Source: an uncultured Victivallales bacterium (GTDB taxonomy: Bacteria; Verrucomicrobiota; Kiritimatiellia; UBA8416). Taken from it: a DNA stretch of 64,000 nucleotides. This document shows positions 3,077 to 60,010 of the stretch, in pieces. Each line of letters starts with the position of its first letter. Positions within the stretch are counted from its first letter, which is position 1. Position numbers and translations under genes: made by a program. Under the pieces are notes generated by a model that ran no database searches, was not told the DNA's origin, and worked only from the letters and a program-made list of their open reading frames with translations. Where the stretch lies: NCBI GenBank assembly GCA_964497125.1, contig CAZCDU010000005.1, positions 35,139 to 99,138 of the forward strand, given 5' to 3'.

Positions 3077-3222
3077 GAACACCCAATATCCAACAAGGAA
3101 TTTCCAGATTCCAAGTGAAATCAAGAGTGGAATAGAGAAGCTCTTGACTGCAGGCGATGATACAGCAGAGCCCAAGTCTCACCTTGTGCTGTTGGAGATT
3201 CCTTGTTGAGTATTGGGTATTC
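3077..3222. repeat. Imperfect 25-bp inverted repeat pair (22/25 match) enclosing ~96 bp of lower-GC sequence
   Basis: gaacacccaatatccaacaaggaat (3077-3101) vs attccttgttgagtattgggtattc (3198-3222), in convergent intergenic region. Confidence 0.4.
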
Positions 3223-3374
3223 AAAACTCGCTGGCCCCCCTTAAAGTAGCGGTATTCGGGACAGGCCATTGGCGCACGTCCGGATCTCAAACTCCCATTC
3301 CCCGTAACAGCGTAGCCGATTCCGGTGGGCTGGGGGAGGCCCTTCTCTCAGGCTATGGCGCTGCCTGATACACT

Positions 3375-4133
3375 CTAGCCGGCGTGCTCCTGGCGGTAGC
3401 GGCCGGGGGGGAGGCCGAACATTTTTCGGAATTCACGGGTGAAGTGGCTGTGGTCGTAGAAGCCTACTTCAAGTGCGATGCGACCAATCGTGTAGGTTGA
3501 TTGGGCGAGAAGCTGGCTTGCCTTTGTGAGACGATACTGGATTACGAAGCGTGATGGCGTTTGTCCCAACGCCTTCTGAAAGCGTCGCTCGAATTGACTG
3601 ATGGAGAGGCCGGCCACCTTGGCTAGGCGCCCCATGCGGAGCGGCTCCGCGTAGTGGGTGCTGATGTGATCCACGACTTTCCGCATTTCCCGGTAAGGCC
3701 GCCTGGCGCTTGCGCTGCGTTCAAGGTCACGCATGATGCCGACGATTCCGATACAGTTGCCGCCAGCGTCGAAGATCGGGAATTTGCTGGTGATATGCCA
3801 ACTCATGGATCCGTCGGGGTTGGCAACCAACTCGCTTCGGCGCATGACCGGCCGGCCGGTCTTCATGACCATTTGGTCATCGGCGTGGTAGTGCGCAATC
3901 ATGTAGCTGGGGAAAAAGTCATAGTCTGTCTTGCCAATAATGTCACTTTCTGTAGCCAGACCGAGCTTTTCGAGCTGCAGGGCATTCGCGCCCATGAACC
4001 TGCTTTGGCGGTCTTTCATGAAGAAATACACATCATCCAGGCATCCAAACATGTCGAGGATTGTTGAAGCATCCGCTATTGAGCGCACAAAGGACTCCTT
4101 GGTAGTGATAGGGGGGCTCTCGTGGCTCATGGC
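3375..4133 (-). CDS. AraC/XylS family transcriptional regulator with N-terminal PAS-like sensor domain
   Basis: C-terminal HTH_AraC (GLSISQFERRFQKALGQTPSRFVIQYRLTKASQLL...FYDHSHFTREFRKMFGLPPGRYR); start MSHESPP with aaggag RBS. Confidence 0.8.
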   Translation of the reverse strand, partial: AMSHESPPITTKESFVRSIADASTILDMFGCLDDVYFFMKDRQSRFMGANALQLEKLGLATESDIIGKTDYDFFPSYMIAHYHADDQMVMKTGRPVMRRSELVANPDGSMSWHITSKFPIFDAGGNCIGIVGIMRDLERSASARRPYREMRKVVDHISTHYAEPLRMGRLAKVAGLSISQFERRFQKALGQTPSRFVIQYRLTKASQLLAQSTYTIGRIALEVGFYDHSHFTREFRKMFGLPPGRYRQEHAG

Positions 4134-4232
4134 TGCTCCTTTAGGTATCAATTCCGTGAGAATGCGGAAAATATACACAATCTCGCGGAATTCGTCCAAG
4201 TTTATTGGCATTCGGGGCGGTATTATCCCGTC

Positions 4233-5087
4233 ATGATGAAATTCGGAATAAATTCGTTTCTATTGTCGTCCGGCTTCACCAACGACGATCTGCCGATTAT
4301 CGAGCAGTTCAAGGCTTGGGGGGCCGATATCGCAGAGTTTGCCGTACTTGAGCCGGAATTGATCGATGCCGCGGCGCTGCGCCGCGCGATTGAGGCGGCG
4401 GGTATGGAGAATTGCCCCGTTTGCGGCATTTGGCCGGAATACCGCGATTTGCGCGGGACGGAGGAGGCACAGCGTAACAGCGCGGAGTACGTGAGTCAGT
4501 TGATTGACCTGGCGTCCGAGATCGGATCTACAATCGTTGCCGGTCCCATGTATTCCTGCGTGGGCCGCTGCGGGCTCTACTCGGATACGGAGAAGGAAGC
4601 GCAGAGCGATCTGATTGCCGGGCACCTTGAGAAGCTGTGCGCGAAGGCGGAGAAGGCGGGGGTCCTGCTTTGCCTCGAGGCGCTGAATCGTTTCGAGACG
4701 GATTGTATTAATACGCTGGCCCAGGCGTCTGCCCTGATTGACAAGGTTGGAAGCCCGGCCCTGAAGATCCATGCAGATACGTTCCATATGAATATTGAGG
4801 AGAGCGATCCGGCTGAAGCCATTCGCACCGCGGGTGACCATATCGGGCACATCCACGCCAGCGGAAGTCACCGCGGAATCCCCGGGACCGGGCACGTGGA
4901 CTGGAGCGGGATCTTCGGTGCGCTGAAGGATATCAACTACGGCGGTGACATCTGCATTGAGACCTTCTCCGCCGACAACGATACGATTGCCCGCGCTGTA
5001 TCCATCTGGATCCGGCGGTTCGAGACGCCGGCGCAGCTCGCTGTGGATGGGCTTGGATTCCTGCGTGATGCGTGGGAGAAGGCGTAA
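4233..5087 (+). CDS. Sugar phosphate isomerase/epimerase (xylose isomerase-like TIM barrel)
   Basis: MMKFGINSFLL start, pattern typical of AP_endonuc_2/xylose-isomerase-like TIM barrel family. Confidence 0.7.
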   Translation: MMKFGINSFLLSSGFTNDDLPIIEQFKAWGADIAEFAVLEPELIDAAALRRAIEAAGMENCPVCGIWPEYRDLRGTEEAQRNSAEYVSQLIDLASEIGSTIVAGPMYSCVGRCGLYSDTEKEAQSDLIAGHLEKLCAKAEKAGVLLCLEALNRFETDCINTLAQASALIDKVGSPALKIHADTFHMNIEESDPAEAIRTAGDHIGHIHASGSHRGIPGTGHVDWSGIFGALKDINYGGDICIETFSADNDTIARAVSIWIRRFETPAQLAVDGLGFLRDAWEKA

Positions 5088-5121
5088 CATTTTTTGCGAA
5101 ACTAAGAGGAGGACCAGAAAC

Positions 5122-6642
5122 ATGAAATCAATTCTGTCATGTACGATAGCCGCTGTTCTGATGAGCTTTGGACTTACGGCAACTGCCGGTGAGTTTGTTT
5201 CCATCTTTGATGGCAAGACGCTTGACGGGTGGGATGGCGATCCCCGCTTCTGGCGGGTCGAGGACGGTGCGGTCGTTGGCGAAACGACTGAGGAGGTACC
5301 GACAAAGGGCAACACGTTTTTAGTCTGGGAGGGTGGTGAGGTAGCTGACTTTGAGCTCAAGGTGGAGTTCAAGATCCGCAATCACAATAGTGGTATCCAG
5401 TACCGCAGCTTTCCAATAGAGGGGAAGCAGTGGGTTGTGGGCGGCTACCAGGCCGACTTCTCTTCCGACCATAAATGGACCGGTTCCGCCTGGGGTGAGA
5501 AGTACAAGAAGATGTTGGCCGTTCGCGGCGAGAAGACCGTTGTAGGCGAACAGGGGAAAGCCCGGCGCGTGGTGGCGCAGGTCGGGGATGGCGAGGAGAT
5601 CCTCGCGCACGTCGACAAGGATGGTTGGAACGAATACCACATCATCGCCAACGGCAACCAGTGTATCCAGAAGATCAACGGCGTGGTGACAGCGGAGTTT
5701 TCTGAGAGCAGCGAGGAGCGCTTGCGCTCAGGGCTGATTGCCCTGCAGCTTCATGGCGGGCCACCAATGCAGGTGAGCTTCCGCAATATTCGTCTGCGCA
5801 AACTGAATGCCGATGACAAGAAACAGGTTCTCTTCCTGGCCGGTAATAAGAGCCACGGGTACGGCGCACATGAACACAAGGCTGGTTGCCACCTTCTGTC
5901 CCGTTGCTTGAATGAAAGCGGGTTGGACGTTGTCAGCCAGGTAACGACCGAAGGGGCGTGGCCACAGCCGTGGGTCGGGTACGATAAACCCGATACCGTT
6001 GTTATGTACTGTGACGGCTACGCCAGGCACCTGGCCAAGAGTCACCAGGACAAGATTCAGACGCTTGTCGACCAGGGGGTAGGGGTTGCCTGCCTGCATT
6101 TTGGTGTTGAGGTGGTGAAAGAGGAGTTGGGCCCGCAGTTCCTGGAGTGGATTGGCGGGTACTTCGAGAACGGCTGGTCGGTCAATCCACACTGGACGCC
6201 AACGTTCGAGCCGCTGCCCGGGCATGCGATCTGCAACGGCGTGAAACCGTTTTCGATTCGGGACGAGTGGTATTACCACATGCGGTTCCAGCCGGAGTTT
6301 GAAAACACAACCGCCATCCTTGCCGCGAAGCCCCCTCTCGAAACGCTGAAGCGTAAGGGCAGCCGGGGCACGAACCCGACGGTGCAAGCTGCTGTCGAGG
6401 CGGGCGTACCTCAAATCGTGTCTTGGGCCTATGAGCGCCCGAATGGCGGGCGTGGGTTCGGATTCACCGGCGGCCATTTTCACCGCAACTGGGCGCAGGA
6501 TGACTTTCGGAAGTTGGTGTTGAACGCGCTCTACTGGACCGCTGGTGGTGACGTGCCGGCCGATGGCATTGCATCACGTACGCCCACAGAGATTGACATG
6601 GAACTGAACCAGGATTACCCGAAACCAAAGGCGCGCAAGTAG
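5122..6642 (+). CDS. Secreted DUF1080 (3-keto-disaccharide hydrolase-like) domain fused to ThuA-like (trehalose utilisation) domain
   Basis: Signal peptide MKSILSCTIAAVLMSFGLTATA; FDGKTLDGWDGD...ALQLHGG (DUF1080 hallmarks) then ThuA-like C-terminal half; aggagg RBS before ATG 5122. Confidence 0.65.
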   Translation: MKSILSCTIAAVLMSFGLTATAGEFVSIFDGKTLDGWDGDPRFWRVEDGAVVGETTEEVPTKGNTFLVWEGGEVADFELKVEFKIRNHNSGIQYRSFPIEGKQWVVGGYQADFSSDHKWTGSAWGEKYKKMLAVRGEKTVVGEQGKARRVVAQVGDGEEILAHVDKDGWNEYHIIANGNQCIQKINGVVTAEFSESSEERLRSGLIALQLHGGPPMQVSFRNIRLRKLNADDKKQVLFLAGNKSHGYGAHEHKAGCHLLSRCLNESGLDVVSQVTTEGAWPQPWVGYDKPDTVVMYCDGYARHLAKSHQDKIQTLVDQGVGVACLHFGVEVVKEELGPQFLEWIGGYFENGWSVNPHWTPTFEPLPGHAICNGVKPFSIRDEWYYHMRFQPEFENTTAILAAKPPLETLKRKGSRGTNPTVQAAVEAGVPQIVSWAYERPNGGRGFGFTGGHFHRNWAQDDFRKLVLNALYWTAGGDVPADGIASRTPTEIDMELNQDYPKPKARK

Positions 6643-7947
6643 CGCGAGGAAGCATAGTACGATGAGTGAAGTTACACGACGGCACTTCATGCGCGACACC
6701 GCGGTGGCCACTGCGGCGATCAGCACGTTCAACATTCTCTCTTCCCGTGCCCAGGAGGCAGCCGGAGGCGAGGTCCTCAAGGTAGCCGTTGTGGGATGCG
6801 GCGGTCGCGGCAATGGTGCGCTCGGCCACTTCCGGGATGCGGCGAAGCTTCTCGGGAAGGACATTGAGGTCGTCGCGCTATGCGATGCATTTGAGGACCG
6901 GGTCCAAGGCTCGTTGAAGCGCCATGGCGTTGACGCGTCCCGCGGGCACTGGGGCTTCAATGCCTACAAGAAAGCCGCGGAGTCGGACGCGGAGTTTGTT
7001 CTTATGGCGACGCCGCCGAACTTCCGCCCTCTGCATCTTGAGGCGATGATCGAGGCGGGCAAGCACTGCTTTGTCGAGAAGCCCGTTGCGGTGGATCCGG
7101 TCGGGGTGCGCAAGGTGATCGAAGTGGGGGAGCGAGCGAAAGCCAAGGGGCTGGCCATCGTGGCCGGCACTCAGCGCCGTTACCAGAAGAACTTCATCAT
7201 GAACAAGGCCCGCGTTGATGCCGGCGCGATCGGACAGATTGTTGGCGGTACGGTGTCATGGAACGGCCGAGTCCCGTGGATTCACAGACGGAAGGCTCAC
7301 TACAGCGACGCCGAGTATATGACCCGTAACTGGTTGAACTTCACGGAGCTATCGGGCGACCACATCTGCGAGCAGCATGTGCATAACCTTGATGTTGCCA
7401 ACTGGTTCATCGGTCGTACGCCGCAGACCTTTATTGGGTTTGGCGGACGTGCCCGTCGCGAGACAGGCAACCAGTTTGATTTCTTCAGCGTTGACATGGA
7501 CTATGGTGATGGCGTCCATATCCACAGTCAGTGCCGGCAGATTCCGGGTTGCTACAACCGGGTTGGCGAGGTCCTGCGTGGTACCGAGGGAAGGGTCGAT
7601 GGTGGTGGTCGCCTATCCGGCAAAGAGGTGACCGTGCCGGATCCCGTGCTGGAGCATGGCAGCGGCTACGTCCAGGAGCATGTTGAACTGATCAAGGGAG
7701 CCCGGAATGGGAAGCCCGCGAATGCAGCCCGCACCGTTGCTGAGGCGACACTATGCGCTGTCGCAGGTCGGATTTCTGCCTACACGGGCAAGTTGGTGCG
7801 GTGGCGTGATATGATGGAGAATACGAACTCCCCGCTCTATTCGCTCGAGCTTGCCCCGACGGCGTTGGCATTTGAGCAGGGCGAAATAGTCCTGCCCGCA
7901 GAAGTGGCACCGATACCCGGCATGGGGGATGGGGCACGGAATCGAGG
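6009..7947. repeat. Copy 1 of 1939-bp near-identical direct repeat (1 mismatch seen)
   Basis: 6009-7947 aligns base-for-base with 9517-11455 (offset 3508); only difference noted g/a at 7911 vs 11419. Confidence 0.9.
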
Positions 7948-7951
7948 ATAG
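6662..7951 (+). CDS. Gfo/Idh/MocA family oxidoreductase with twin-arginine (Tat) signal
   Basis: RRHFMRDTAVATAA Tat motif; Rossmann VAVVGCGGRGNGALGHF; EKPVA motif of Gfo/Idh/MocA. Confidence 0.8.
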   Translation: MSEVTRRHFMRDTAVATAAISTFNILSSRAQEAAGGEVLKVAVVGCGGRGNGALGHFRDAAKLLGKDIEVVALCDAFEDRVQGSLKRHGVDASRGHWGFNAYKKAAESDAEFVLMATPPNFRPLHLEAMIEAGKHCFVEKPVAVDPVGVRKVIEVGERAKAKGLAIVAGTQRRYQKNFIMNKARVDAGAIGQIVGGTVSWNGRVPWIHRRKAHYSDAEYMTRNWLNFTELSGDHICEQHVHNLDVANWFIGRTPQTFIGFGGRARRETGNQFDFFSVDMDYGDGVHIHSQCRQIPGCYNRVGEVLRGTEGRVDGGGRLSGKEVTVPDPVLEHGSGYVQEHVELIKGARNGKPANAARTVAEATLCAVAGRISAYTGKLVRWRDMMENTNSPLYSLELAPTALAFEQGEIVLPAEVAPIPGMGDGARNRG

Positions 7952-9516
7952 AGTTTGGATTGATGTGTCGCGAGCAACGCCATGCTCTCACTGCGTCGAG
8001 CCAGTCTAGATGGGTCGTCGAATCATCTGCCCTTTTGCGTCTTTTGCTCGTTTCGCAGTCCAGGGCCTTGTGGCGCGGAGGATCGCGAGACGGAGAGTAG
8101 AACGGAGAGTAGGGACAGGCAATTAGTAAGGATTGGTCAGTAATGGCAGCTGACGCAGGGGAAGTGGGGTGGATGCTTGTGTCTGAGCTGGCCGCTATGG
8201 GCCGGTCAGCGGTTAGCCCCCTGTGGTTGCGCGCAGATTTGGCGCGCAAGAACACTTACGATAACGATCTTGGCTGCAGATAGGCAGAGCTCACCTGCAA
8301 GTAGTACTCAGTGAGACATGGGATATCCCCGCCTAGCAGGTCGCCGGCGGTGTGATGACCTGAAGCCGTAGACGACGGGCAGTGTATATATCTCCCCATT
8401 GGCAGCCTGCCATCTTGCGGGCGCCGGTCTTGCGTCTCTCACCGAACTGTTGTCGGTGTCTCTCGAAGACATCTTCGACGTAGGCCTTGCTGCCAAGGAC
8501 TGCGCCATCAGCAAAATAGCGTACACGACAACGTAGTACCTGGTTGATTGGCAGAGCGCCGCCGGCATCCAATACGGCTTTGGCTTCCTTAGGGCTGAAG
8601 CCCGGCTTCAGGGGCTGGCCATCCGTGCCTGTGCCGCGGGTCTCTCCCTTCGTGTAGAGCAGCGTGCGGTATTGCTTTGATACCGCGTTCCAGGAGATGT
8701 CCTGATTGGGCGTGCACATGATACGCGATAGCCCCGCTCTTGCCCGCTTTGAGCCTCCCATGGCTTCGCCGTAGCCGCAGAACCGGTAGTCTTTCGGATC
8801 GCTCACAATCCCGGCACGAACAGCATTTAGATCGACATAGGCAGCTACGGCGGACAACGCCCCTTCGCTGTCTCCGACCAAAAGGCTTTTGAACCGTTCT
8901 TCCCAAAGCGTGCCCTTGCGGCCGTGGCGACGATTGTAAGACATCGTGACGCGTTGTTTTAGTGTTTTGAGGAATTCCGAGATGTCATACATCCGATAGG
9001 TGTATTTGGCCTTCAGGGCTTCGGCCGCCTCATGCTCTCCGGTCTCGCGCATTTCAGCAAGTCTTGCTTCCGTGCGATTGGCCTCACGGCGATCATAGAG
9101 ACTTCGGTGTCGGAAGAGGAATAGGCTGTCGCTGACCTCTTCTCGTTCTGGCACATGCAGGACGATGTGAAAATGATTGTCGAGTACGGAGTGCGTCACA
9201 ATCTCGACACCACAGAAGGACTCCGCAGCCCGCATTACCTGTAAAAAGCGTGTCTTTTCGTCGTCATCAAACACCCAACGGCGGTCAACAACGCGTGACA
9301 TGACATGATAGTAGGCTGCGTGATCTTCTCGTATTCGTGCTCTTCGCATACTGGAGTCCTTTCGTGCTCACCGGCACGCTACTGGTGCCTTCTAACCTGT
9401 AGAAGAAGCGAATTCGCATAATTCCGAAAAAAGTTGGAACTTTCTTTGGATGGACTGTGTGTCCCTAGCTGTTGCTAGCTGGTGGTGTTGGATAGACTGT
9501 GTGTCCCTAGCTGTTC
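7948..9516 (-). mobile_element. IS200/IS605-like single-ORF element (Y1 HUH transposase) lying between the two repeat copies
   Basis: Contains tnpA-like ORF 8333..9349; GC-rich hairpins near both ends (ttgcgcgcagatttggcgcgcaa 8231-8253; cgtgctcaccggcacg 9361-9376); 21-bp direct repeat gactgtgtgtccctagctgtt x2 at 9454-9474 and 9495-9515. Confidence 0.55.
8333..9349 (-). CDS. Y1 (HUH) tyrosine transposase, IS200-like/REP-associated family, unusually long (338 aa)
   Basis: HUH motif HFHIVL, YHVMSR N-terminal motif, catalytic Tyr region YVDLNAVRAGIV. Confidence 0.7.
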   Translation of the reverse strand: MRRARIREDHAAYYHVMSRVVDRRWVFDDDEKTRFLQVMRAAESFCGVEIVTHSVLDNHFHIVLHVPEREEVSDSLFLFRHRSLYDRREANRTEARLAEMRETGEHEAAEALKAKYTYRMYDISEFLKTLKQRVTMSYNRRHGRKGTLWEERFKSLLVGDSEGALSAVAAYVDLNAVRAGIVSDPKDYRFCGYGEAMGGSKRARAGLSRIMCTPNQDISWNAVSKQYRTLLYTKGETRGTGTDGQPLKPGFSPKEAKAVLDAGGALPINQVLRCRVRYFADGAVLGSKAYVEDVFERHRQQFGERRKTGARKMAGCQWGDIYTARRLRLQVITPPATC

Positions 9517-10150
9517 CTGTGACGGCTACGCCAGGCACCTGGCCAAGAGTCACCAGGACAAGATTCAGACGCTTGTCGACCAGGGGGTAGGGGTTGCCTG
9601 CCTGCATTTTGGTGTTGAGGTGGTGAAAGAGGAGTTGGGCCCGCAGTTCCTGGAGTGGATTGGCGGGTACTTCGAGAACGGCTGGTCGGTCAATCCACAC
9701 TGGACGCCAACGTTCGAGCCGCTGCCCGGGCATGCGATCTGCAACGGCGTGAAACCGTTTTCGATTCGGGACGAGTGGTATTACCACATGCGGTTCCAGC
9801 CGGAGTTTGAAAACACAACCGCCATCCTTGCCGCGAAGCCCCCTCTCGAAACGCTGAAGCGTAAGGGCAGCCGGGGCACGAACCCGACGGTGCAAGCTGC
9901 TGTCGAGGCGGGCGTACCTCAAATCGTGTCTTGGGCCTATGAGCGCCCGAATGGCGGGCGTGGGTTCGGATTCACCGGCGGCCATTTTCACCGCAACTGG
10001 GCGCAGGATGACTTTCGGAAGTTGGTGTTGAACGCGCTCTACTGGACCGCTGGTGGTGACGTGCCGGCCGATGGCATTGCATCACGTACGCCCACAGAGA
10101 TTGACATGGAACTGAACCAGGATTACCCGAAACCAAAGGCGCGCAAGTAG
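9517..10150 (+). pseudogene. Truncated duplicate of the ThuA-domain 3' end (last ~211 codons of 5122..6642)
   Basis: Identical to 6009-6642; lacks N-terminal DUF1080 and first part of ThuA domain; ORF 9482..10150 only has a fortuitous upstream ATG. Confidence 0.7.
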
Positions 10151-11455
10151 CGCGAGGAAGCATAGTACGATGAGTGAAGTTACACGACGGCACTTCATGC
10201 GCGACACCGCGGTGGCCACTGCGGCGATCAGCACGTTCAACATTCTCTCTTCCCGTGCCCAGGAGGCAGCCGGAGGCGAGGTCCTCAAGGTAGCCGTTGT
10301 GGGATGCGGCGGTCGCGGCAATGGTGCGCTCGGCCACTTCCGGGATGCGGCGAAGCTTCTCGGGAAGGACATTGAGGTCGTCGCGCTATGCGATGCATTT
10401 GAGGACCGGGTCCAAGGCTCGTTGAAGCGCCATGGCGTTGACGCGTCCCGCGGGCACTGGGGCTTCAATGCCTACAAGAAAGCCGCGGAGTCGGACGCGG
10501 AGTTTGTTCTTATGGCGACGCCGCCGAACTTCCGCCCTCTGCATCTTGAGGCGATGATCGAGGCGGGCAAGCACTGCTTTGTCGAGAAGCCCGTTGCGGT
10601 GGATCCGGTCGGGGTGCGCAAGGTGATCGAAGTGGGGGAGCGAGCGAAAGCCAAGGGGCTGGCCATCGTGGCCGGCACTCAGCGCCGTTACCAGAAGAAC
10701 TTCATCATGAACAAGGCCCGCGTTGATGCCGGCGCGATCGGACAGATTGTTGGCGGTACGGTGTCATGGAACGGCCGAGTCCCGTGGATTCACAGACGGA
10801 AGGCTCACTACAGCGACGCCGAGTATATGACCCGTAACTGGTTGAACTTCACGGAGCTATCGGGCGACCACATCTGCGAGCAGCATGTGCATAACCTTGA
10901 TGTTGCCAACTGGTTCATCGGTCGTACGCCGCAGACCTTTATTGGGTTTGGCGGACGTGCCCGTCGCGAGACAGGCAACCAGTTTGATTTCTTCAGCGTT
11001 GACATGGACTATGGTGATGGCGTCCATATCCACAGTCAGTGCCGGCAGATTCCGGGTTGCTACAACCGGGTTGGCGAGGTCCTGCGTGGTACCGAGGGAA
11101 GGGTCGATGGTGGTGGTCGCCTATCCGGCAAAGAGGTGACCGTGCCGGATCCCGTGCTGGAGCATGGCAGCGGCTACGTCCAGGAGCATGTTGAACTGAT
11201 CAAGGGAGCCCGGAATGGGAAGCCCGCGAATGCAGCCCGCACCGTTGCTGAGGCGACACTATGCGCTGTCGCAGGTCGGATTTCTGCCTACACGGGCAAG
11301 TTGGTGCGGTGGCGTGATATGATGGAGAATACGAACTCCCCGCTCTATTCGCTCGAGCTTGCCCCGACGGCGTTGGCATTTGAGCAGGGCGAAATAGTCC
11401 TGCCCGCAGAAGTGGCACCAATACCCGGCATGGGGGATGGGGCACGGAATCGAGG
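9517..11455. repeat. Copy 2 of 1939-bp direct repeat
   Basis: See copy 1. Confidence 0.9.
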
Positions 11456-11459
11456 CTAG
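10170..11459 (+). CDS. Gfo/Idh/MocA family oxidoreductase with Tat signal (intact duplicate of 6662..7951)
   Basis: 429-aa product identical to first copy except where repeat ends at last codons. Confidence 0.8.
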   Translation: MSEVTRRHFMRDTAVATAAISTFNILSSRAQEAAGGEVLKVAVVGCGGRGNGALGHFRDAAKLLGKDIEVVALCDAFEDRVQGSLKRHGVDASRGHWGFNAYKKAAESDAEFVLMATPPNFRPLHLEAMIEAGKHCFVEKPVAVDPVGVRKVIEVGERAKAKGLAIVAGTQRRYQKNFIMNKARVDAGAIGQIVGGTVSWNGRVPWIHRRKAHYSDAEYMTRNWLNFTELSGDHICEQHVHNLDVANWFIGRTPQTFIGFGGRARRETGNQFDFFSVDMDYGDGVHIHSQCRQIPGCYNRVGEVLRGTEGRVDGGGRLSGKEVTVPDPVLEHGSGYVQEHVELIKGARNGKPANAARTVAEATLCAVAGRISAYTGKLVRWRDMMENTNSPLYSLELAPTALAFEQGEIVLPAEVAPIPGMGDGARNRG

Positions 11460-11586
11460 CAGCCTGTCGGTTTTCGAAGAAGACTGCGCGAATATCTGGT
11501 TCAACGACACCCGTTTGCATCAATCTGAAGCAGACGCTATCTTCTCAAGCGTCGGTTGCTTAAAGTCCGATCAGGCTGGCCTGCAC

Positions 11587-11606
11587 ATTTCACGATTACG
11601 TGAAAT
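11587..11606. other. Perfect palindrome atttcacg-atta-cgtgaaat
   Basis: 8-bp arms, 4-nt centre, intergenic downstream of duplicated oxidoreductase gene. Confidence 0.5.
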
Positions 11607-11807
11607 AGCAGGAATGGCGAAACACCCAAACACCCAAATCCGAAGCCAAAAGCCCCGATTCACGGTGGGTTCGTGCGTTTTGATATTCGGATTTAGTCAT
11701 TCTTTGGGTACTTGGGTATCTGGGCATTTGGGTGCTTGGTGCCATTTCGTCTGTAAGTAGTTTTGTGACAGAAGAACAGTCTTGAGTACGAAATGGCCCT
11801 GAGGTTG

Positions 11808-11836
11808 TTGCGTTTCACGGGGCTTTTCTCTATATT
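11808..11836 (+). promoter_or_regulatory. Sigma-70-like promoter TTGCGT-N17-TATATT upstream of secreted paralog A
   Basis: -35 11808-11813, -10 11831-11836 embedded in palindrome ctctatattatagag; ATG 11846 only ~10 nt downstream (near-leaderless). Confidence 0.4.
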
Positions 11837-11845
11837 ATAGAGGTG

Positions 11846-12574
11846 ATGAGACGTTGGGTTCATATAGCTGTGGTTTCGCTGTTGTTCGGCGTAAACGCGG
11901 AGTTGGCGCCAGGGGCTGATTTCTCGCGCTACTCGCTGATTCTGGACCGCCGGCCGTTTGCGGCGGCGACGTTGTCGGATGATGCGGCGGACAACATTGT
12001 GACCTTGGTGGCGCCGCCGGCCTTTGTCAAAGACCTACGGATGTGCGCGATTACCGAAAGCCCGGCCGGCATCCGCGTTGGCTTCGTGAACATCCAATCG
12101 AAACCACCGCAACCTTATTACCTTTATGTTGGGGACTCGGAAGACGGGATTGAGCTTGTCGAGGCCGACTACGATAAGGAAGGCGCCCTGCTTCGAAAGG
12201 GCACGGAGCAGTACTGGCTCTATATGGGGGCAGGCAGCGTTGCCAGCGGCAGTGCTCCTGCGGCTCCTTCATCTGTGACCGTCAGGACCTCTGTCTCTAA
12301 GGGCGGGAGAGGCGTACCGGCTGCCGCCTCGAAATCCGATGCCAAAGGTCCCGGTTCGGTTTCGTATGCGGAACGCCGCCGCCGTCGGCTTGAGCAGATG
12401 CGAGAGCGCGCGGCGGCGACCAGAAAGGTTACGGAAGCTGAGGCCGAGGAGAAACTGCGTAACTACCAGATGGATCTGATTCGCAAAGGCCTCACGCCTC
12501 TGCCAATGCAACTGACTCCGGAAATGGACGCCCAGCTTGTTGCAGAGGGCGTGCTTCCCGCCATGGAAGAGTGA
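11846..12574 (+). CDS. Secreted hypothetical protein, tandem paralog A
   Basis: Signal peptide; shares blocks with 12725..13438 (FSRY..IL.RRPF, LxMCAIT, VRVGF, Y[YF]L[YF]VG.xEDGI.[LV]VEADYD, C-terminal DAQLV.EGVL). Confidence 0.55.
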   Translation: MRRWVHIAVVSLLFGVNAELAPGADFSRYSLILDRRPFAAATLSDDAADNIVTLVAPPAFVKDLRMCAITESPAGIRVGFVNIQSKPPQPYYLYVGDSEDGIELVEADYDKEGALLRKGTEQYWLYMGAGSVASGSAPAAPSSVTVRTSVSKGGRGVPAAASKSDAKGPGSVSYAERRRRRLEQMRERAAATRKVTEAEAEEKLRNYQMDLIRKGLTPLPMQLTPEMDAQLVAEGVLPAMEE

Positions 12575-12580
12575 AGAGAG

Positions 12581-12620
12581 AAAGCTGAAATTGGGAAAGC
12601 TGAAAGCTGAGATGGGGATG
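12581..12620. repeat. Purine-rich intergenic repeat aaagctgaaattgggaaagctgaaagctgagatgggg (family member)
   Basis: Near-identical copy at 49891-49947. Confidence 0.6.
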
Positions 12621-12633
12621 GGATTCGTTATAG

Positions 12634-12672
12634 GCGTTGCACGTTGCAGTCGTTGCACGTTGCAGTCGTTGA
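12634..12672. repeat. Tandem ~16-bp repeats GTTGCAGTCGTTRCAC (2.5 units)
   Basis: gcgttgcacgttgcagtcgttgcacgttgcagtcgttgaac; same unit in tandem at 33429-33508. Confidence 0.6.
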
Positions 12673-12724
12673 ACGGGGGATCAAGAACCGGAGCTGGAGG
12701 AGCGCGTTAGGTGAAGGTGGGTAG

Positions 12725-13438
12725 ATGAGCATGAGAAAGCAGCTACTGTATATAGTATGTGTTTTGGCCGCTCTTCAGATAACTACCTCATATGGGGCTG
12801 TGGTGCAGTCCTTCTCTCGCTACGAAGTGATTCTCAGTCGTCGGCCGTTCGGGGAGGCGCCGTCTGAGGCGGAGTTGGCCGCAGCCAAGCCTGTCGTATC
12901 GACTGGACCATCCTTTATTGACTCTCTCCAGATGTGCGCCATTACTGCCGGCGGCGGGGCGGTTCGGGTTGGGTTCCTGGATACGAAGAGTAATCCCCCG
13001 AAGACGTACTTCCTCTTTGTTGGCGAAATGGAAGATGGCATCACTGTGGTCGAAGCGGACTACGATGCCGAGACCGCGCTTCTGAGCAAGGATGGTGATG
13101 AGCGGCTCCTGTCGATGTCGCCTGGCGGCACCGGTTCCTCTTTAACAGCACAAGCCGCGGTCGCTTCTCAAGAGCGCTCCCAGGCATTCAAGAGAATGCG
13201 CCGAGCGAGGGAACTGGCGAAACGTTCGCCAGAGGAGATTGCGCTCGCGCGGCAACTTGCAATCGAACGCAAAGCGCCTCTCTTGAAAGGAGAGGACTAT
13301 GACAAGCACATCCGCGCCTACAATATGAACCTTATCAGAGCTGGGGGAGACATGGGAGTACCCCTGCCCATTACGCTTACGGAGGAAGAGGACGCGCAGC
13401 TTGTTTCCGAAGGCGTATTGGGGACACCGGGAGAGTGA
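12725..13438 (+). CDS. Secreted hypothetical protein, tandem paralog B
   Basis: Signal peptide MSMRKQLLYIVCVLAALQ; paralogous to 11846..12574. Confidence 0.55.
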   Translation: MSMRKQLLYIVCVLAALQITTSYGAVVQSFSRYEVILSRRPFGEAPSEAELAAAKPVVSTGPSFIDSLQMCAITAGGGAVRVGFLDTKSNPPKTYFLFVGEMEDGITVVEADYDAETALLSKDGDERLLSMSPGGTGSSLTAQAAVASQERSQAFKRMRRARELAKRSPEEIALARQLAIERKAPLLKGEDYDKHIRAYNMNLIRAGGDMGVPLPITLTEEEDAQLVSEGVLGTPGE

Positions 13439-13469
13439 AAAAAAAAACGGAAAAACGGCTGAGAATCAC

Positions 13470-13499
13470 TTGACGGCGAGAAAGAAAATGGGTATAAAT
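13470..13499 (+). promoter_or_regulatory. Sigma-70-like promoter TTGACG-N17-TATAAAT
   Basis: cttgacggcgagaaagaaaatgggtataaatt; follows poly-A tract after paralog B; ~140-nt leader to ATG 13647. Confidence 0.45.
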
Positions 13500-13646
13500 T
13501 AAGTAGACCTAGGGGAAACCCTTAGTGGTTCCAGGGCTAAGGCAAGCTCTGAATTACGGGTTGACGTATCGGAAGCAGTTATAGTAGTATTCAAACAAGT
13601 AACGGGTTGGCTCGACAGGGAGAGCCGCAACAAGGAGGCAGGAGCA

Positions 13647-14435
13647 ATGAAGAAATTGTCACTAAGTCTGGTCGCTTTGATCGCCATGGCCATCGCAGCC
13701 CAAGCGGTAAACAGCGTAAACATCGTGGGAGTCAACACGCTTCAACTTGAGTCCGGGAAGCGCTACATTGCATCCGCGCCCCTGTATGATCCCAACGGTG
13801 ATGGCACCAATACTCTCCTTAGTGTATTTGGTACGGATCAACTCGTACAGGCTGTGAACTATATCAATGCGGATCGAATCATCCTCTTCGATACCGTAGC
13901 TGGTGCCTATCAGGCCTATGCGCAGTATACAGACGGGACGTTCTACGGCTGCAATAACCTTGCAGAGTGGAATGCAGGTTCTGTTCTTGGTAATGATGTG
14001 GTCTTGGAGCCAGGCACTTCGTTTTGGATTGTTCATCCCGCAGGAGAAGCAACGAGCGAAGTTACCCTTAGTGGTGAAGTGCTCGGTGGATCCGCACACA
14101 CTCAGGATGTGGCCCTTGTAACGGGATATCAGCTGGCAGCAAACCCCTATGCGTCAGAGATCGCCATTCAGGATATTGCCAAGATTGCGGATGGGGCGAC
14201 TGCCGATATCAACTACATCAATGCCGACCGTATCGTGACTTGGGATCCAGACGCTCAGGCCTATCAGGCATATGGGCTCTACACGGATGATACTTGGTAT
14301 AAGTGCAATGATCTGGCTGAGTGGAATGCTGGTGGTGATGTTACTGCGACCGTTCCTGTGGCCGGTGGATTCTGGTATATCTCAAAAACGGACTTTACAT
14401 TGACAGACGCCTGTCCGTATAGTGCCGCATACTAA
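13647..14435 (+). CDS. Secreted hypothetical protein with internal tandem domain duplication
   Basis: Signal peptide MKKLSLSLVALIAMAIAAQA; two ~100-aa repeats (NYINADRIILFD..YQAYAQYTDGTFYGCNNLAEWNAG / NYINADRIVTWD..YQAYGLYTDDTWYKCNDLAEWNAGG). Confidence 0.55.
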   Translation: MKKLSLSLVALIAMAIAAQAVNSVNIVGVNTLQLESGKRYIASAPLYDPNGDGTNTLLSVFGTDQLVQAVNYINADRIILFDTVAGAYQAYAQYTDGTFYGCNNLAEWNAGSVLGNDVVLEPGTSFWIVHPAGEATSEVTLSGEVLGGSAHTQDVALVTGYQLAANPYASEIAIQDIAKIADGATADINYINADRIVTWDPDAQAYQAYGLYTDDTWYKCNDLAEWNAGGDVTATVPVAGGFWYISKTDFTLTDACPYSAAY

Positions 14436-14476
14436 AGAACGTTTGTGTGGTTCACTGAATTGATTGGAGCTAGATA

Positions 14477-15052
14477 ATGACGAAGTGGGTTGGACTAGGG
14501 ATCGTGATGATCGCGCTTGCCGCGAGTACTTCTTTCGGAGGTACAATTGCTTGGGCATACGCAAGTGACTTGGGTGGAAGCTACACGGCAGGCTGGCTAG
14601 TGGAAATCATTGAGGACGTCAACCAAGACGGGATTTCCATTGGGGGTGGCCTTGGTAGCGGTATGATAATGTACAGGAATCCAGGAGATTTGTCGCGAGC
14701 TCACCTCGATGGTGATGACACTTGGGTGACGGCTAATATCACGACGACCCTGCAGAGCGGGAAGACGGGAACAGGATGGGGAACTACCTTCAATGCTCCT
14801 GGATCGTCGCTAGCTACATCTGACAATATTTACACCGTCATCTACAATGGGGCGACGTTTGAGAGCGCAACGCAGTACCGCGTCGTTGATGCCTCACCTT
14901 TCGCTCTACCCTCAACGGATATTGATGCGGACTATGCACCTGGGTCAGTGAATGGTGCATGGGCTCCCATCGTAGCAGTGCCGGAGCCTGGGAGTATGGT
15001 TCTTTTCGCCTTAGGCATCGTGACACTGGCCGTACGTCGCAAGCGCCGCTAG
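14477..15052 (+). CDS. PEP-CTERM sorting-domain protein (exosortase substrate)
   Basis: C-terminus VPEPGSMVLFALGIVTLAVRRKRR = PEP motif + TM helix + basic tail. Confidence 0.7.
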   Translation: MTKWVGLGIVMIALAASTSFGGTIAWAYASDLGGSYTAGWLVEIIEDVNQDGISIGGGLGSGMIMYRNPGDLSRAHLDGDDTWVTANITTTLQSGKTGTGWGTTFNAPGSSLATSDNIYTVIYNGATFESATQYRVVDASPFALPSTDIDADYAPGSVNGAWAPIVAVPEPGSMVLFALGIVTLAVRRKRR

Positions 15053-15077
15053 CTCTGGACGAATCAGATTCGTAGAT

Positions 15078-15110
15078 GGGGGCCTCTCGCGAGGCCCCCA
15101 TCTTTTTTTT
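15078..15110 (+). terminator. Rho-independent terminator
   Basis: gggggcctc-tcgc-gaggccccc stem followed by tcttttttttg. Confidence 0.8.
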
Positions 15111-15138
15111 GCCGTCTACGTATCATGGGAATCCGCCA

Positions 15139-15750
15139 ATGACTGTTTTCTCAAGACTCCTTCTTTTGATTTGCATGTGCATCATAGGTAGCACTTGCGA
15201 CGCTGAGCAGCCGCTGTCAAAGAATCTTCTTTTTCTTGCTTCACCGGAAGTGTCGTCTGAACTTGCCAACGCACGTTTCAGGTTCCTGGAAATGAACGTG
15301 AGAGGGACGCTCCGCACAGATAGGACCCTTTTGCGCACCGCGGAGCTGACTCCGAAAGAGCAGCTCAAGGCATTTTCTTGTATGGTGACTGACGGAGATG
15401 CCCTAGTCATTGCTCTTGTCAACTCACCATCTGGAGGAGGCCCCGTCGTTGCCTACTCGGTAGGGCTTGGTGCCTCCGTGGTCAACATTTCGCCGATCCT
15501 AGCGATGAAAGAGCTTACGCCGACGGGGCAGAGCGCGAGAATCGATAGGGCCCTGATGTTTGCAATTGGGATGCTACTGCAAGTTGATTCGTGCATGAAT
15601 CCATTCTGCGCCTTGAGCGAGGTCGATCATTTCCGTAAGGATCAATTGCCTGGGCGGAATTACTGCCCCGCCTGCACCGACAAGGTCTCTGACCAGCTCA
15701 AGAACCATGGGGTATGTGAGGGGACGCCGCTGCCGAAATCCGGCAAGTAG
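15139..15750 (+). CDS. Cys-rich secreted/lipoprotein-like hypothetical protein (CX4C...X18...CXXC motif)
   Basis: Start MTVFSRLLLLICMCIIGSTC; C-terminal CMNPFC...CPAC zinc-ribbon-like spacing; upstream part of ORF 15076 lies in terminator. Confidence 0.4.
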   Translation: MTVFSRLLLLICMCIIGSTCDAEQPLSKNLLFLASPEVSSELANARFRFLEMNVRGTLRTDRTLLRTAELTPKEQLKAFSCMVTDGDALVIALVNSPSGGGPVVAYSVGLGASVVNISPILAMKELTPTGQSARIDRALMFAIGMLLQVDSCMNPFCALSEVDHFRKDQLPGRNYCPACTDKVSDQLKNHGVCEGTPLPKSGK

Positions 15751-23765: not shown

Positions 23766-23926
23766 CGCGGAACGCGGAATGCGGAATGCGGAATTGAGAG
23801 GGTATTCCGACGCTGCGCGTTGGCACGCTGAGGCGTGTGCGGCTCGCCAGGGACCCTTCAGCCTAGAAGCGGCAGTTCAACTGCTCTTTCTAGGTTCAGT
23901 GGTGGGCAGGCAGACTCACCCTACCT

Positions 23927-24160
23927 GGGAGTGCGGAAGAGGCACAGGCTCCCCGGAATACCGGGGAAGCCCGTCCTACACGGGTGTTGCGGAAGAGGCA
24001 CAGGCTCCCCGGAATACCGGGGAAGCCCGTCCTACACGGGTGTTGCGCGAGAGGCACAGGCTCCCCGGAATACCGGGGAAGCCTGTCCTACACGGGTGTT
24101 GCGCGAGAGGCGCTGGCTCCCCGGAATACCGGGGAAGCCTGTCCTACACGGACTGTTGCA
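23927..24160. repeat. Tandem repeat, 56-bp unit x ~4, each unit with hairpin ccccgg-aata-ccgggg
   Basis: Period 56 measured at 23941/23997/24053/24107; units contiguous, near-identical. Confidence 0.85.
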
Positions 24161-29506: not shown

Positions 29507-29653
29507 TGTGGTTCGCGTCTTCTTCTTGGGGCCCTGTGTGGTGCTACTGTATTCTGGCCCTTTCGGGCCAGCTCGGCTCGGCAGGGACGCCTCGCCCTAC
29601 CAGGAGGAGTTGGTCGTGACGGCCAACGCTACACATGAGATGTCATGTGGAAT

Positions 29654-33428: not shown

Positions 33429-33508
33429 GGTTTCAGTCGTTACAATCGTTTCAGTCGTTACACGTTTCAGTCGTTACACGTTGCACGTTGCAGTCGTTAC
33501 ACGTTGTG
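33429..33508. repeat. Tandem ~16-bp repeats GTTTCAGTCGTTACAC / GTTGCAGTCGTTACAC (~5 units)
   Basis: Same family as 12634-12672. Confidence 0.6.
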
Positions 33509-48504: not shown

Positions 48505-48603
48505 GGGGACTAAGTAAAACAGAAACGCGGAAATCTGAAAGCAGAAATCGAGAAAAGAAAGAGGGGCAAGGGCGAATGGCGCCTGGACAAGCTCTCCTTT
48601 GCA

Positions 48604-49890: not shown

Positions 49891-49947
49891 AAAGCTGAAA
49901 TGGGGAAAGCTGAAAGCTGAGATTGAGATTGAGATTGAGAAGGACTC
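49891..49947. repeat. Purine-rich repeat aaagctgaaatggggaaagctgaaagctgagattgagattgagattgag
   Basis: Copy of element at 12581-12620, plus (gagatt)3. Confidence 0.6.
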
Positions 49948-59813: not shown

Positions 59814-59915
59814 GGCGGACGATGCTCCGGGCTATTATGCGGTGTGGGAAGTGCGGGGGAGTGGACTAGTAGGGTCCGAGCGCACTCGGACTAATCATGG
59901 GCGCAACTTCTTTGG

Positions 59916-60010
59916 TAGGCCGGACATCTTGTCCGGCAGAGGAAGAGGACCGACGGGCAAGATGCCCATCCTACATATGGAGTCGAAAACGTTAGGAAAC
60001 AGGTGAAGTT
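59916..60010. repeat. Dispersed repeat module (hairpin gccggaca-tct-tgtccggc ... gtgaagtttcagg) shared with 53436-53560
   Basis: 23-nt identical core gtaggccggacatcttgtccggc at both loci, similar 3' end. Confidence 0.6.

Follow-up and report, generated by a model that had tools for sequence, protein, structure and literature searches.

Members of the IS200/IS605 group encode a class 1 TnpA that has a Y---Q motif and is about 150 aa long, carry subterminal hairpins on one strand, and occur in multiple identical copies. RAYT genes belong to REPtrons that have flanking REP hairpins with a GTAG foot, and REP copies are dispersed genome-wide. Target-site duplications left by transposons are short direct repeats of fixed length (2-15 bp). 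Campbell-type integration by a single crossover, as well as RecA-dependent tandem duplication and loop-out, are textbook processes.

The HUH/Y1 fold of single-strand DNA transposases combines a HuH metal-binding motif with a single catalytic tyrosine, on a beta-sheet scaffold unrelated to RNase H. Among the TnpA_Y1 proteins, subclass 2.3 has a median length of 325 aa and the key motifs NHYH, WE, and YVDLNP; its members also have an insertion between beta3 and alphaC that is conserved and about 55 aa long, and a long C-terminal tail in two parts (Quentin, Siguier, Chandler, and Fichant 2018, PMC6006769). The enzymes of this subclass are without known activity (PMC6006769), and transposition has not been demonstrated for the group; subclass 2.3/TIRYT enzymes have to date been considered immobile or of unknown function. 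TIRtrons (TIRYT) contain a RAYT-like Y1 gene and flanking inverted repeats that share GGGGWSAS (Di Nocera et al. 2013, PMC3733652). A HUH transposase unit surrounded by duplicated host-side sequence is known from ISCR1, where the 3'-CS is duplicated in the 'complex class 1 integrons' (PMC8386438). This arrangement has been explained by a circle of the element plus flanking DNA that is rescued by homologous recombination (e.g. PMC8386438).

The 64-kb window, by which we mean the whole stretch of DNA that was analysed, contains a 3,508-bp tandem unit comprised of a 1,943-nt repeat and a 1,565-nt spacer, followed by a second copy of the repeat. We call the two copies A and A', the spacer B, and the left and right flanks L and R (Table 1). 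Comparison of the sequence with itself confirmed that 6009-7947 recurs at 9517-11455 with a constant offset of 3508, as the initial annotation had stated. The single mismatch reported there is correct for that interval and lies at 7912 (G; A at 11420). There is a second mismatch immediately after it (7948 A, 11456 C), and matching then continues through the TAG stop (7951 and 11459), so that the full repeat, 6009-7951 and 9517-11459, has two mismatches. Both are synonymous (CCG/CCA, Pro; GGA/GGC, Gly). The left edge of the repeat is abrupt, with almost no match over 5990-6008. The repeat region contains no N's and the match between A and A' is far above chance expectation. The beginning of B shows no residual similarity to that of R, and its end shows none to L. 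Repeat comparison and domain searches recovered the coordinates and gene content of the unit as first read.

Table 1. Features of the duplicated locus (positions are those of the window)
Feature	Position	Strand	Remarks
3-keto-disaccharide hydrolase / ThuA fusion gene, intact	5122..6642 (start 4945/5122)	+	domain search
Repeat copy A	6009..7951	+	last 634 nt of ThuA-fusion gene, 19-nt spacer, complete Gfo/Idh/MocA gene to TAG
Gfo/Idh/MocA oxidoreductase, copy 1	6662..7951	+	429 aa, TAT signal
Phased sites 7873, 7912, 7948	7873..7948	+	sole sites phased between copies
Spacer B	7952..9516	-	1,565 nt; TIRtron plus 158 nt non-conserved DNA; missing from L-A-R alleles
Non-conserved stretch	7952..8101	.	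about 150 nt between oxidoreductase stop and conserved TIRtron core
Downstream (right-end) inverted motif	8109..8125	+	GTAGGGACAGGCAATTA on + strand; ~210 nt beyond stop codon
Class-2 Y1 HUH protein gene	8333..9349	-	338 aa; TIRYT / TnpA_Y1 subclass 2.3-like
Upstream (left-end) motif array	9446..9518	-	two 31-nt units 42 nt apart, each with AGGGACACAC on transposase strand
5'-truncated ThuA ORF	9482..10150	+	222 aa; first 12 codons including start from B; crosses novel junction B/A'
Repeat copy A'	9517..11459	+	differs from A only at 11420 (A vs G) and 11456 (C vs A)
Gfo/Idh/MocA oxidoreductase, copy 2	10170..11459	+	protein identical to copy 1

The left boundary of the repeat, between 6008 and 6009, falls inside the ThuA-fusion gene, and the reading frame is unbroken across it. 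The second copy of the repeat supplies an intact oxidoreductase gene and a 5'-truncated ThuA fragment, in agreement with the first reading. The TAT signal of the oxidoreductase was detected with TIGR01409 (20.3 bits, cut-off 16.7).

We observed the order L-A-B-A'-R in three independent metagenome assemblies (L001, L002, and L003) and in the window's own contig; these are short-read scaffolds in which read pairs cannot span the 1.9-kb repeat and the loop is traversed by heuristics. The 222-aa ORF, a marker of the B/A' junction, was also found in a fourth ENA sample and one JGI contig. Two scaffolds (L036 and L037) begin exactly at 6009, and JGI contigs end at 7872 and 7911, immediately before phased variants. 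The search of relatives for an unduplicated allele, proposed with the initial annotation, was successful. Two contigs of the same species, 99.8-99.9 % identical and free of N's, have the order L-A-R without B and the second copy of A. These are L031 (6,044 nt; 3210-7951 joined to 11460-12761) and L066 (JGI; 7,099 nt; 4764-7951 joined to 11460-15371), and both have 7912A/7948C. The gene order in L-A-R is AraC, a sugar-phosphate-isomerase-like gene, the ThuA fusion, Gfo/Idh/MocA, and hypothetical genes. The A'/R junction is identical to the A/R junction of these alleles; the outer junctions of A-B-A' are native and only A/B and B/A' are novel. A sister species (L054-L063), with approximately 81 % nucleotide identity over 3377-7920, contains one ThuA-Gfo pair and neither the transposase nor a second copy of A. 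Since L-A-R occurs in the same species and B is missing from the sister species, we take the 3,508-bp unit to be a structural variant that is derived and segregating. With the repeat and both novel junctions present in several independent assemblies, next to an L-A-R allele and a sister species without the unit, we regard the variant as genuine and as a fairly ordinary one, of the recombination type, in a natural population of this uncultured bacterium.

The existence of L-A-R contigs is also consistent with a different reading, namely that the linear order is wrong and that the chromosome is L-A-R accompanied by a free 3.5-kb circle of A+B, or carries an (A-B)n-A amplification, with the loop traversed once. 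B-only short contigs are present in the JGI data, and there is a 3,506-nt 'loop' contig (L005; A-end/B/A'), which is a property of the assembly graph and does not prove that a circle exists. Within each assembly, both copies have identical interior variants, as if one graph edge had been reused. However, a circle that does not replicate would seldom be covered deeply enough to assemble in five or more samples, and the unit encodes no replication function besides the Y1 enzyme, whose homologues are located in stable chromosomal contexts. The variants at the right junction are cleanly phased into B-linked and R-linked states, a pattern that fits both readings and is not decisive. We consider a free circle or an amplification unlikely.

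The initial annotation described the duplication as recent, with one mismatch. Neither the age nor the near-identity is established, given that interior variants of A are always alike in both copies of any one assembly and copy-specific variants occur only within 80 nt of the right junction. This pattern of shared variants is what a repeat node used twice in a short-read graph yields, and short-read assembly probably overstates the identity of A and A'. Polymorphism in A is limited to 6630-7948, which is essentially the Gfo gene, and is also found between the two L-A-R contigs, so that not all of it can reflect differences between A and A'. At 7873-7912-7948, the B-linked copy is T/C-G-A, with A at 7912 in one contig, whereas the R-linked copy and the unduplicated alleles are always T-A-C. 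Outgroups have C-G at 7873 and 7912 and, as polarised by these two synonymous sites, the transposase-linked copy retains the outgroup states. The B-linked haplotypes C-G-A, T-G-A, and ?-A-A form a gradation towards T-A-C, which is invariant in the R-linked copy, and these right-edge sites suggest graded gene conversion.

Graded differences confined to the right edge, with outgroup states retained in the B-linked copy, are also expected if the duplication is old and has been homogenised by gene conversion, the L-A-R alleles being secondary RecA-mediated deletions; direct repeats of 1.9 kb are expected to loop out. Yet the truncated ThuA part (6009-6629), which should evolve freely as a pseudogene, is variant-free in all assemblies. 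B, L, and R are likewise invariant across assemblies, and the sister species is without B. An old duplication is thus an improbable account in our view. It overlaps with the single-crossover explanation favored below, the main difference being one of timing.

The protein encoded in the 1.57-kb spacer is a HUH/Y1 one-tyrosine enzyme by fold, as first described. It matches Pfam Y1_Tnp (PF01797; 47.4 bits, cut-off 23) on the minus strand, the match covering only residues 11-80. An AF2 model (pLDDT 83.6) matched 4ER8, 2XM3, and 2A6O with a probability of 1.00, the closest structural match being E. coli TnpA_REP (4ER8). The protein contains NHFH (57-60), WE (148-149), and YVDLNA (170-175), and N57-H58-F59-H60 and Y170 are unchanged across 20 homologues. 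An insertion of approximately 55 aa splits the Y1 match, and predicted helices at 73-141 occupy the gap. The match to the NCBIfam RAYT profile REP_Tyr_transpos (NF047646; 59.3 bits, cut-off 80) picks up again at 122-191 and is followed by a C-terminal tail of approximately 145 aa (192-338). Thus, the architecture is that of subclass 2.3 in the insertion between beta3 and alphaC, the long tail, and the length of 338 aa. The key motifs NHYH, WE, and YVDLNP are present with F in place of Y and A in place of P, both of them conservative changes. By its motifs only, we describe the protein as class 2 TnpA_Y1 subclass 2.3-like or TIRYT-like. The nearest named homologues are from Lentisphaerota MAGs, and paralogues that are approximately 70-93 % identical occur together in the same sample series. 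Judging by what the distant transposase homologues are called, the host may belong to the PVC group, which is no more than a guess.

The label 'IS200-like' given to the element at first was not borne out. The IS200 profile NF033573 scored 22 bits against a cut-off of 55, and the Y motif belongs to the Y---N type of class 2. We found none of the class 1 traits of IS200/IS605, no second copy in the window, and the identical protein only at this locus. A typical IS200 element was rejected on these grounds, the protein being class 2 and RAYT-related with inverted GGGACACAC motifs instead of hairpins. A RAYT/REPtron was rejected as well because the NF047646 score is below its cut-off, the other 62 kb do not contain the motif, and the hairpins are weak. 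We also rejected an ISCR or IS91 rolling-circle element because the protein has a one-tyrosine Y1 domain.

The GGGACACAC motifs lie on both sides of the Y1 gene. The outer left-end unit adjoins the junction with A' (9516/9517), which is 9 nt outside the outermost left-end motif, and the inner unit lies at a conserved distance to the ATG in four other family members (L010, L013, L042, and L050). The right-end motif, with an inverted TAGGGACA at 8110-8117, occupies the same position as the right-end motifs of homologues, including L010. Across the family, (A/G)GGGACAC occurs in 2 to 6 copies upstream and in 1 to 3 inverted copies downstream. The locus has the flanking inverted repeats sharing GGGGWSAS seen in TIRtrons (TIRYT). 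The inverted match was significant in L010, L013, and L042 (0-3 of 200 shuffles), whereas the window taken by itself gave a weak match (45 of 200). Only weak hairpins of 3-5 bp were predicted, and there are no dispersed motif copies in the other 62 kb of the window.

A search for other copies of the 7948-9516 element, as first suggested, revealed none in the 64 kb or in the contigs that code for the identical protein, and the exact sequence of B was found at no other place in the data compared. The nearest relative, the L010 element, is 85.6 % identical to B and shares only 8102-9467, so the inserted DNA exceeds a precise end-to-end element. The stretch 7952-8101 is not common to the L010 element and is dissimilar to R. 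A 70 %-identical element of the L013 type has a perfect 39-nt flanking direct repeat in all samples. Of the five family members examined besides B, four (L010, L042, L047, and L050) have no flanking direct repeat of at least 11 nt. With a repeat of 1,943 nt and most family members lacking one, we rejected a transposon target-site duplication; the initial annotation had already judged the repeat too long for this.

The 39-nt repeat and the position of the A' junction just outside the left-end motif are consistent with a duplication coupled to the transposase. At a replication fork, the Y1 enzyme might have connected its two ends to positions on sister strands that are separated by 1,943 nt, leading to a giant 'target duplication' by analogy with sister-chromatid or alternative transposition. 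This is improbable in light of the four family members without a flanking repeat, a right-hand junction 158 nt past the conserved right end, and the lack of known activity for the subclass (PMC6006769). Also, the B-linked copy keeps outgroup states relative to the R-linked copy, which a copy freshly made in situ would not be expected to do. A broader version, in which subclass 2.3/TIRYT enzymes are mobile and integrate at replication forks with ends joined at staggered positions to give variable target duplications (39 nt in the L013 type, 1,943 nt here), is the most doubtful proposal that we considered. If true, this locus would be the first caught-in-the-act TIRtron insertion.

The best explanation, to which we give a probability of roughly 0.45, is a Campbell-type crossover or unequal exchange that created the segregating 3,508-bp variant, with later gene conversion; here we infer a circle, the direction of change (gain versus loss), a role for the enzyme, and the conversion itself. 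Direct copies of A, of which the empty allele has only one, stand on both sides of the insert, and the joins to L and R are native. The ancestral locus would be L-A-R, to which the variant adds B and a second copy of A. One reciprocal homologous crossover between a 3.5-kb circle of A+B and chromosomal A would lead to A-B-A', and unequal sister-chromatid exchange would yield the identical product. The 3,506-nt contig L005 is in keeping with such a unit. Crossing over in reverse, between A and A', would loop the unit out and produce L-A-R alleles, in which the right end of A' is necessarily retained. The Y1 enzyme may at most have made a single joint, between the outer edge of the left-end array (9516) and 6009 within ThuA. 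Gene conversion after formation would keep the interiors of the copies alike and leave differences only at the right edge, and short-read assembly would then collapse any remaining interior differences. Integration of this kind would require a circle from a cell in which B was already downstream of a Gfo allele. Neither such a donor allele (L-A-B-X) nor a circular form of A+B was found in the data compared, and the origin of the circle needs an additional event. The initial annotation had proposed a transposase-associated or recombination-mediated duplication. Recombination is a likely origin; nothing shows that the enzyme made the duplication, and the inserted DNA has 158 nt outside the conserved element.

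The structure also equals a tandem duplication in which an insertion occupies the joint, as would arise if a replication-based or illegitimate rearrangement (template switching or unequal illegitimate exchange) duplicated A and captured a copy of B from another place in the genome, with no role for the transposase. The imprecise inserted DNA, with its 158 extra nt, is consistent with this, as is possible microhomology of at most approximately 2 nt (CT) at 9517-9518. There is, however, no second B in the 64 kb or in identical-protein contigs from which to copy, the nearest relative being 85.6 % identical, and a B/A' joint at the outer edge of the end-motif array would be a coincidence. We think such a rearrangement rather unlikely, though less so than a transposase-coupled event.

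Compared to known systems, the B protein has the same HUH/Y1 catalytic fold as the enzymes of IS200/IS605. As in ISCR1, a transposase unit lies between two direct copies of adjacent host DNA, and recombination also removes such units. By contrast, ISCR and IS91 have two-tyrosine Rep-like rolling-circle enzymes with oriIS and terIS, whereas the B enzyme is a one-tyrosine class-2 protein. The enzyme is like TnpA_Y1 subclass 2.3 in length, motifs, insertion between the HuH strand and helix C, long tail, and lack of flanking REP-like hairpins. It differs in the middle residue of HuH (F not Y) and in the proline of the Y motif (A), and subclass 2.3 has been described mainly in Chromatiales and Alteromonadales, whereas the nearest named homologues here are from Lentisphaerota MAGs. 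B resembles a TIRtron in combining a Y1 gene with inverted (A/G)GGGACAC, in a motif that is undispersed in the 64-kb window, and in being an element that is usually low-copy. Unlike the published set, which is from other phyla, it has only one short inverted copy downstream in the window. No TIRtron presence/absence variant with a kilobase-scale flanking duplication is reported in PMC3733652 or PMC6006769. Campbell-type integration does not explain how the circle arose or how 9516 came to be joined illegitimately to 6009, and the data are metagenome assemblies and not an isolate. It is nonetheless matched in the insert between direct repeats of a single-copy target, the native outer junctions, the co-existing unduplicated allele, and a unit that equals repeat plus insert.

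The window contains a direct repeat whose two copies, A and A', lie on either side of a spacer, B (7952-9516), and between a left flank, L, and a right flank, R. The initial annotation had 6009-7947 recurring at 9517-11455 with a constant offset of 3508 and one mismatch (7912/11420). We found this repeat to be real and to extend to 7951/11459, with a second mismatch at 7948/11456 followed by a TAG stop common to both copies. The full repeat is thus 1,943 nt long with two differences, both synonymous and both within its final 40 nt. The left edge is sharp and N's are absent. No residual homology, which would be a sign of an older or longer duplication or of paralogue conversion, was found past the repeat ends. 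The ThuA part of A belongs to a gene encoding a 3-keto-disaccharide-hydrolase/ThuA fusion and the oxidoreductase has a TAT signal. The intact second oxidoreductase and truncated ThuA described in the initial annotation are both present in A'.

Features of the duplicated locus (window coordinates)
Feature	Position	Strand	Content
Repeat copy A	6009-7951		3' part of the ThuA-fusion gene (last 634 nt) and complete Gfo/Idh/MocA gene
Gene for 338-aa Y1 HUH protein	8333-9349	minus	Pfam Y1_Tnp match
Truncated ThuA ORF	9482-10150		Start codon taken from spacer B
Repeat copy A'	9517-11459		Same oxidoreductase, intact, and truncated ThuA ORF

Exact-protein look-ups recovered the order L-A-B-A'-R in three independently assembled samples (L001, L002 and L003), as well as a contig with L-A-B (L004) and a 3,506-nt 'loop' contig (L005). 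A further ENA sample also has the 222-aa ORF across B|A', and a JGI contig has it with a single substitution. Contig ends coincide with the expected break points of a repeat graph: two scaffolds (L036, L037) begin exactly at 6009, and JGI contigs stop at 7872 and 7911, directly before variants at 7873 and 7912. This recurrence in independent samples, together with contig ends where a repeat graph predicts them, demonstrates that both novel junctions are genuine in many samples. The unduplicated allele, which the initial annotation proposed to look for in relatives, also exists. It is found as gap-free L-A-R in L031, a 6,044-nt contig from a different study (3210-7951 + 11460-12761), and in L066, a 7,099-nt JGI contig (4764-7951 + 11460-15371). 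Samples with the duplicated form are SAMN10231894, SAMN10231913, SAMN10231914 and SAMN10231891, and those with L-A-R are SAMN11854493 and JGI 3300009332. In a sister species, the gene order is AraC, isomerase-like gene, ThuA, Gfo, second Gfo and transporter, with ThuA 96 % identical at the protein level (210 residues compared) and DNA about 81 % identical over 3377-7920. Both the transposase and the duplication are absent from this sister-species locus. Since L-A-R contigs occur in the same species and the sister species has no such unit, the 3,508-bp stretch appears to be a derived feature, and one that is polymorphic in the population. With L|A and A'|R both native, the novel joints are confined to A|B (7951|7952) and B|A' (9516|9517).

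The window region shared with the sister species, 3375-7951, is a conserved four-gene module (about 81 % nucleotide identity, flanks differing on both sides) encoding an AraC/PAS regulator, a xylose-isomerase-like TIM-barrel protein, the 3-keto-disaccharide hydrolase/ThuA fusion and the TAT-exported Gfo/Idh/MocA protein. It looks like a 3-keto-glycoside utilisation cassette, and its right synteny break coincides with the repeat end. A metagenome scan with the oxidoreductase returned only relatives with 36-80 % identity that had no downstream synteny.

The initial annotation suggested a recent duplication. Differences between assemblies are nearly all within A, with zero to one in the 12 kb of L, B and R; roughly 16 variable sites lie at 6630-7948. 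Interior differences are identical in both copies of any one assembly (for example 6630/10138, 6682/10190, 6685/10193 and 6739/10247), and the copies differ from each other only at sites less than 80 nt from the right junction. This pattern matches that of a short-read assembler traversing one graph edge twice, and the near-identity of A and A' is therefore not an independent measurement. In short-read metagenome contigs, such 'near-perfect' kilobase repeats are largely an assembly by-product and no evidence of recency. Because paired ends are too short to bridge 1.9 kb, the same graph would also describe an L-A-R locus accompanied by a free circle, or a greater degree of amplification, readings that we regard as unlikely though ahead of the other alternatives to be weighed.

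T-A-C at 7873, 7912 and 7948 is constant in the R-linked copy and in both L-A-R alleles. The B-linked copy has C-G-A (L001, L003), T-G-A (the window, L002, L004) or ?-A-A (L005). Two outgroups have C-G at the first two of these sites. The outgroup states and the graded B-linked haplotypes are the basis on which the B-linked copy appears to keep older states that have been progressively converted towards the other copy. A very recent duplicate of the sampled L-A-R alleles would not show this pattern. Recency is not established. Among the polarised interior variants, neither haplotype is ancestral throughout. It is improbable that the duplication is old and was kept uniform by conversion, the L-A-R alleles being secondary deletions; this scenario separates from our preferred explanation mainly in timing.

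The Gfo/Idh/MocA gene is highly mosaic among assemblies of one species independently of the duplication (6630-7948; L033, L064, L068 and L070). There are 21 differences in 7273-7519 in L064, 28 in 7537-7648 in L068 and L070, and an additional variant cluster at 6630-6943; most are synonymous and none is within 6009-6629. Tracts at 7273-7519, 7402-7519 and 7537-7648 diverge by 8-22 % while 12 kb of flanks are nearly invariant, suggesting that the gene has recombined with diverged alleles or paralogues or that the assemblies are chimeric. A search for the donor of the 7273-7519 and 7537-7648 tracts among the sister-species and other related loci gave a best match of only about 80-85 %. The L-A-R contigs L031 and L066 also differ from each other within A, so not all variation in A is between copies.

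We examined the protein encoded in B, which the initial annotation called an IS200-like Y1 transposase. The Pfam Y1_Tnp match covers residues 11-80 only. The NCBIfam RAYT model matches residues 122-191 with 59 bits, under its 80-bit cut-off, and the IS200 model gives only 22 bits. Alignment with 20 homologues showed that N57-H58-x-H60, W148-E149 and Y170-x-D-L-N174 are invariant. An AlphaFold model (pLDDT 83.6) is nearest to E. coli TnpA_REP (4ER8), with ISDra2 and IS608 TnpA next. The protein has over 4,300 relatives, mostly about 337 aa long, and the few that are named have Lentisphaerota-type labels or 'RayT'. A GTDB genome scan with the transposase gave a single distant Victivallales match, and searches of viral contigs and plasmids gave nothing useful. 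Several features fit TnpA_Y1 subclass 2.3 of Quentin et al. (PMC6006769): the NHFH, WE and YVDLNA motifs, the length, a helical insertion of about 55 residues after the HuH strand, and a long tail. In the published subclass the motifs are NHYH, WE and YVDLNP, the median length is 325 aa, REP is absent and genomes carry several diverged copies each (PMC6006769).

B aligns with the element in L010, a paralogue or orthologue in another context, at 85.6 % nucleotide identity restricted to window positions 8102-9467. Flank alignments of several homologues revealed a conserved motif, AGGGACACAC(A)nTCTATCC, some 110 nt before the ATG, and more copies lie farther from the gene; the window has two, at 9446-9518. 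About 200-300 nt past the stop the motif recurs as its reverse complement, of which the window has one copy at about 8110-8125. For L010, L013 and L042, three loci of the family, the inverted match is significant. The flanking motif fits GGGGWSAS, the consensus described for TIRtron terminal inverted repeats; TIRtrons carry a TIRYT gene (Di Nocera et al., PMC3733652). The 31-nt unit and its core have no dispersed REP-like copies in the other 62 kb of the window, and only weak hairpins are predicted at B. Based on these inverted ends, the undispersed motif and the weak hairpins, B is a TIRtron plus about 158 nt of unrelated DNA (7952-8109) rather than an IS200-type insertion sequence. The annotated Y1 HUH protein stands; the element is not IS200-like in the strict sense. 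Rfam, promoter and terminator scans of the region returned nothing. The end arrays expand and contract: the 93 %-identical paralogue in L010 has six or seven upstream GGGACACAC units at 5706-5903, including 32-nt tandem units, compared with two in the window. Tetranucleotide composition does not resolve whether this paralogue shares a genome with the window.

Other repeats occur in the window. Tandem and nested repeats at 52714-53208 and 53750-53797 are built from a 224-nt unit, whose copies are 99 % identical, and a 48-nt sub-unit that occurs six times, and an array with a 56-nt period (about five units) lies at 23876-24151, just downstream of a UDP-glucose pyrophosphorylase-like gene. Intergenic AAAGCTGAAA-rich 39-mers are at 12581-12619, 48516-48576, 49891-49929 and 63537-63575, and intergenic CGTTGCACGTTGCAGT units at 12635-12678 and 33456-33506. 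Two other dispersed motifs, possibly REP-like intergenic elements, are GCGCGGCTCGGCAGGGACGCCTCGCCCTACC, which is 31 nt long, and GGCCGGACATCTTGTCCGGC, which forms a hairpin; the sites are 29571-29601 and 53315-53345, 53435-53463 and 59909-59937, and L054 39-103. About 66 nt around 53370-53435 are 82 % conserved in the sister species.

At 7953-7975 the left-end unit recurs as a degenerate direct copy. Considered as the true right terminus of B, this copy proved not to be significant (20-22 of 200-300 shuffles); it has no counterpart among homologues, the flanking repeat of L013 aside. In L013 (3693-3731 + 5363-5401), and also in L017, L018 and L019, a perfect 39-nt direct repeat, TGTATTGTCCCTTCGGGACTGAGGTCCGTCCTCCGTCCA, lies on both sides of a transposase-gene homologue with 70 % identity. 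The repeat includes a GTCCC-TTCG-GGGAC hairpin; in L017 there is also a 119-nt duplication within the right-end motif array. The 39-nt repeat hints at a transposase-coupled 'giant target duplication' in the window. Such repeats were found solely in the L013 type; L010, L042, L047 and L050 have none, and we rejected them as a family trait. Given these four members and a right junction that lies off the element end, this origin is quite unlikely.

The insert lies between direct copies of a segment found once in the empty allele, and the outer junctions are native. We therefore consider a single reciprocal homologous crossover between a circle, [A+B], and chromosomal A to be the most likely account, with a probability of roughly 0.45. 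Such a circle would recombine with chromosomal A to yield A-B-A', unequal exchange between sisters would give the identical product, and the reverse crossover would restore L-A-R. Gene conversion and assembly collapse would produce the near-identity of A and A'. The different 3' haplotype of the B-linked copy favors this account; against it, neither the circle nor the predicted donor allele, L-A-B-X, was seen. Capture of a B copy by template switching or illegitimate exchange is doubtful, no other copy of B having been seen in the window or among contigs that encode the identical protein. The circle account is also favored by the 158 nt that separate the Gfo stop from the conserved right end and do not belong to the element, which suggest that the A|B adjacency was inherited rather than being a transposase joint. 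At most, the Y1 enzyme might be responsible for the illegitimate joint of the outer edge of the left-end array (9516) to ThuA at 6009. Where the initial annotation allowed a transposase-associated or a recombination-mediated duplication, recombination is a likely origin and the transposase-coupled reading is disfavored.

To our knowledge, neither mobility nor function has been demonstrated for TIRYT or subclass 2.3 Y1 proteins, numerous as they are. A within-species presence/absence variant with exact boundaries is a substrate for testing Y1 cleavage beside GGGACACAC arrays. The variant also brings a secreted Gfo/Idh/MocA oxidoreductase, part of a 3-keto-sugar utilisation cluster, to twice its dose. 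Because of this doubled dose and a gene that is unusually mosaic in the population, the variant may be an adaptive gene amplification in the wild. Both components of the locus are of known kinds: the element is a TIRtron, and the tandem duplication is of the recombination type and has a mobile-element-like gene at its joint. The same circle-crossover logic has been proposed for ISCR1 units, which are flanked by duplicated 3'-CS in complex class 1 integrons and, like the unit in the window, can be lost by recombination (PMC8386438).
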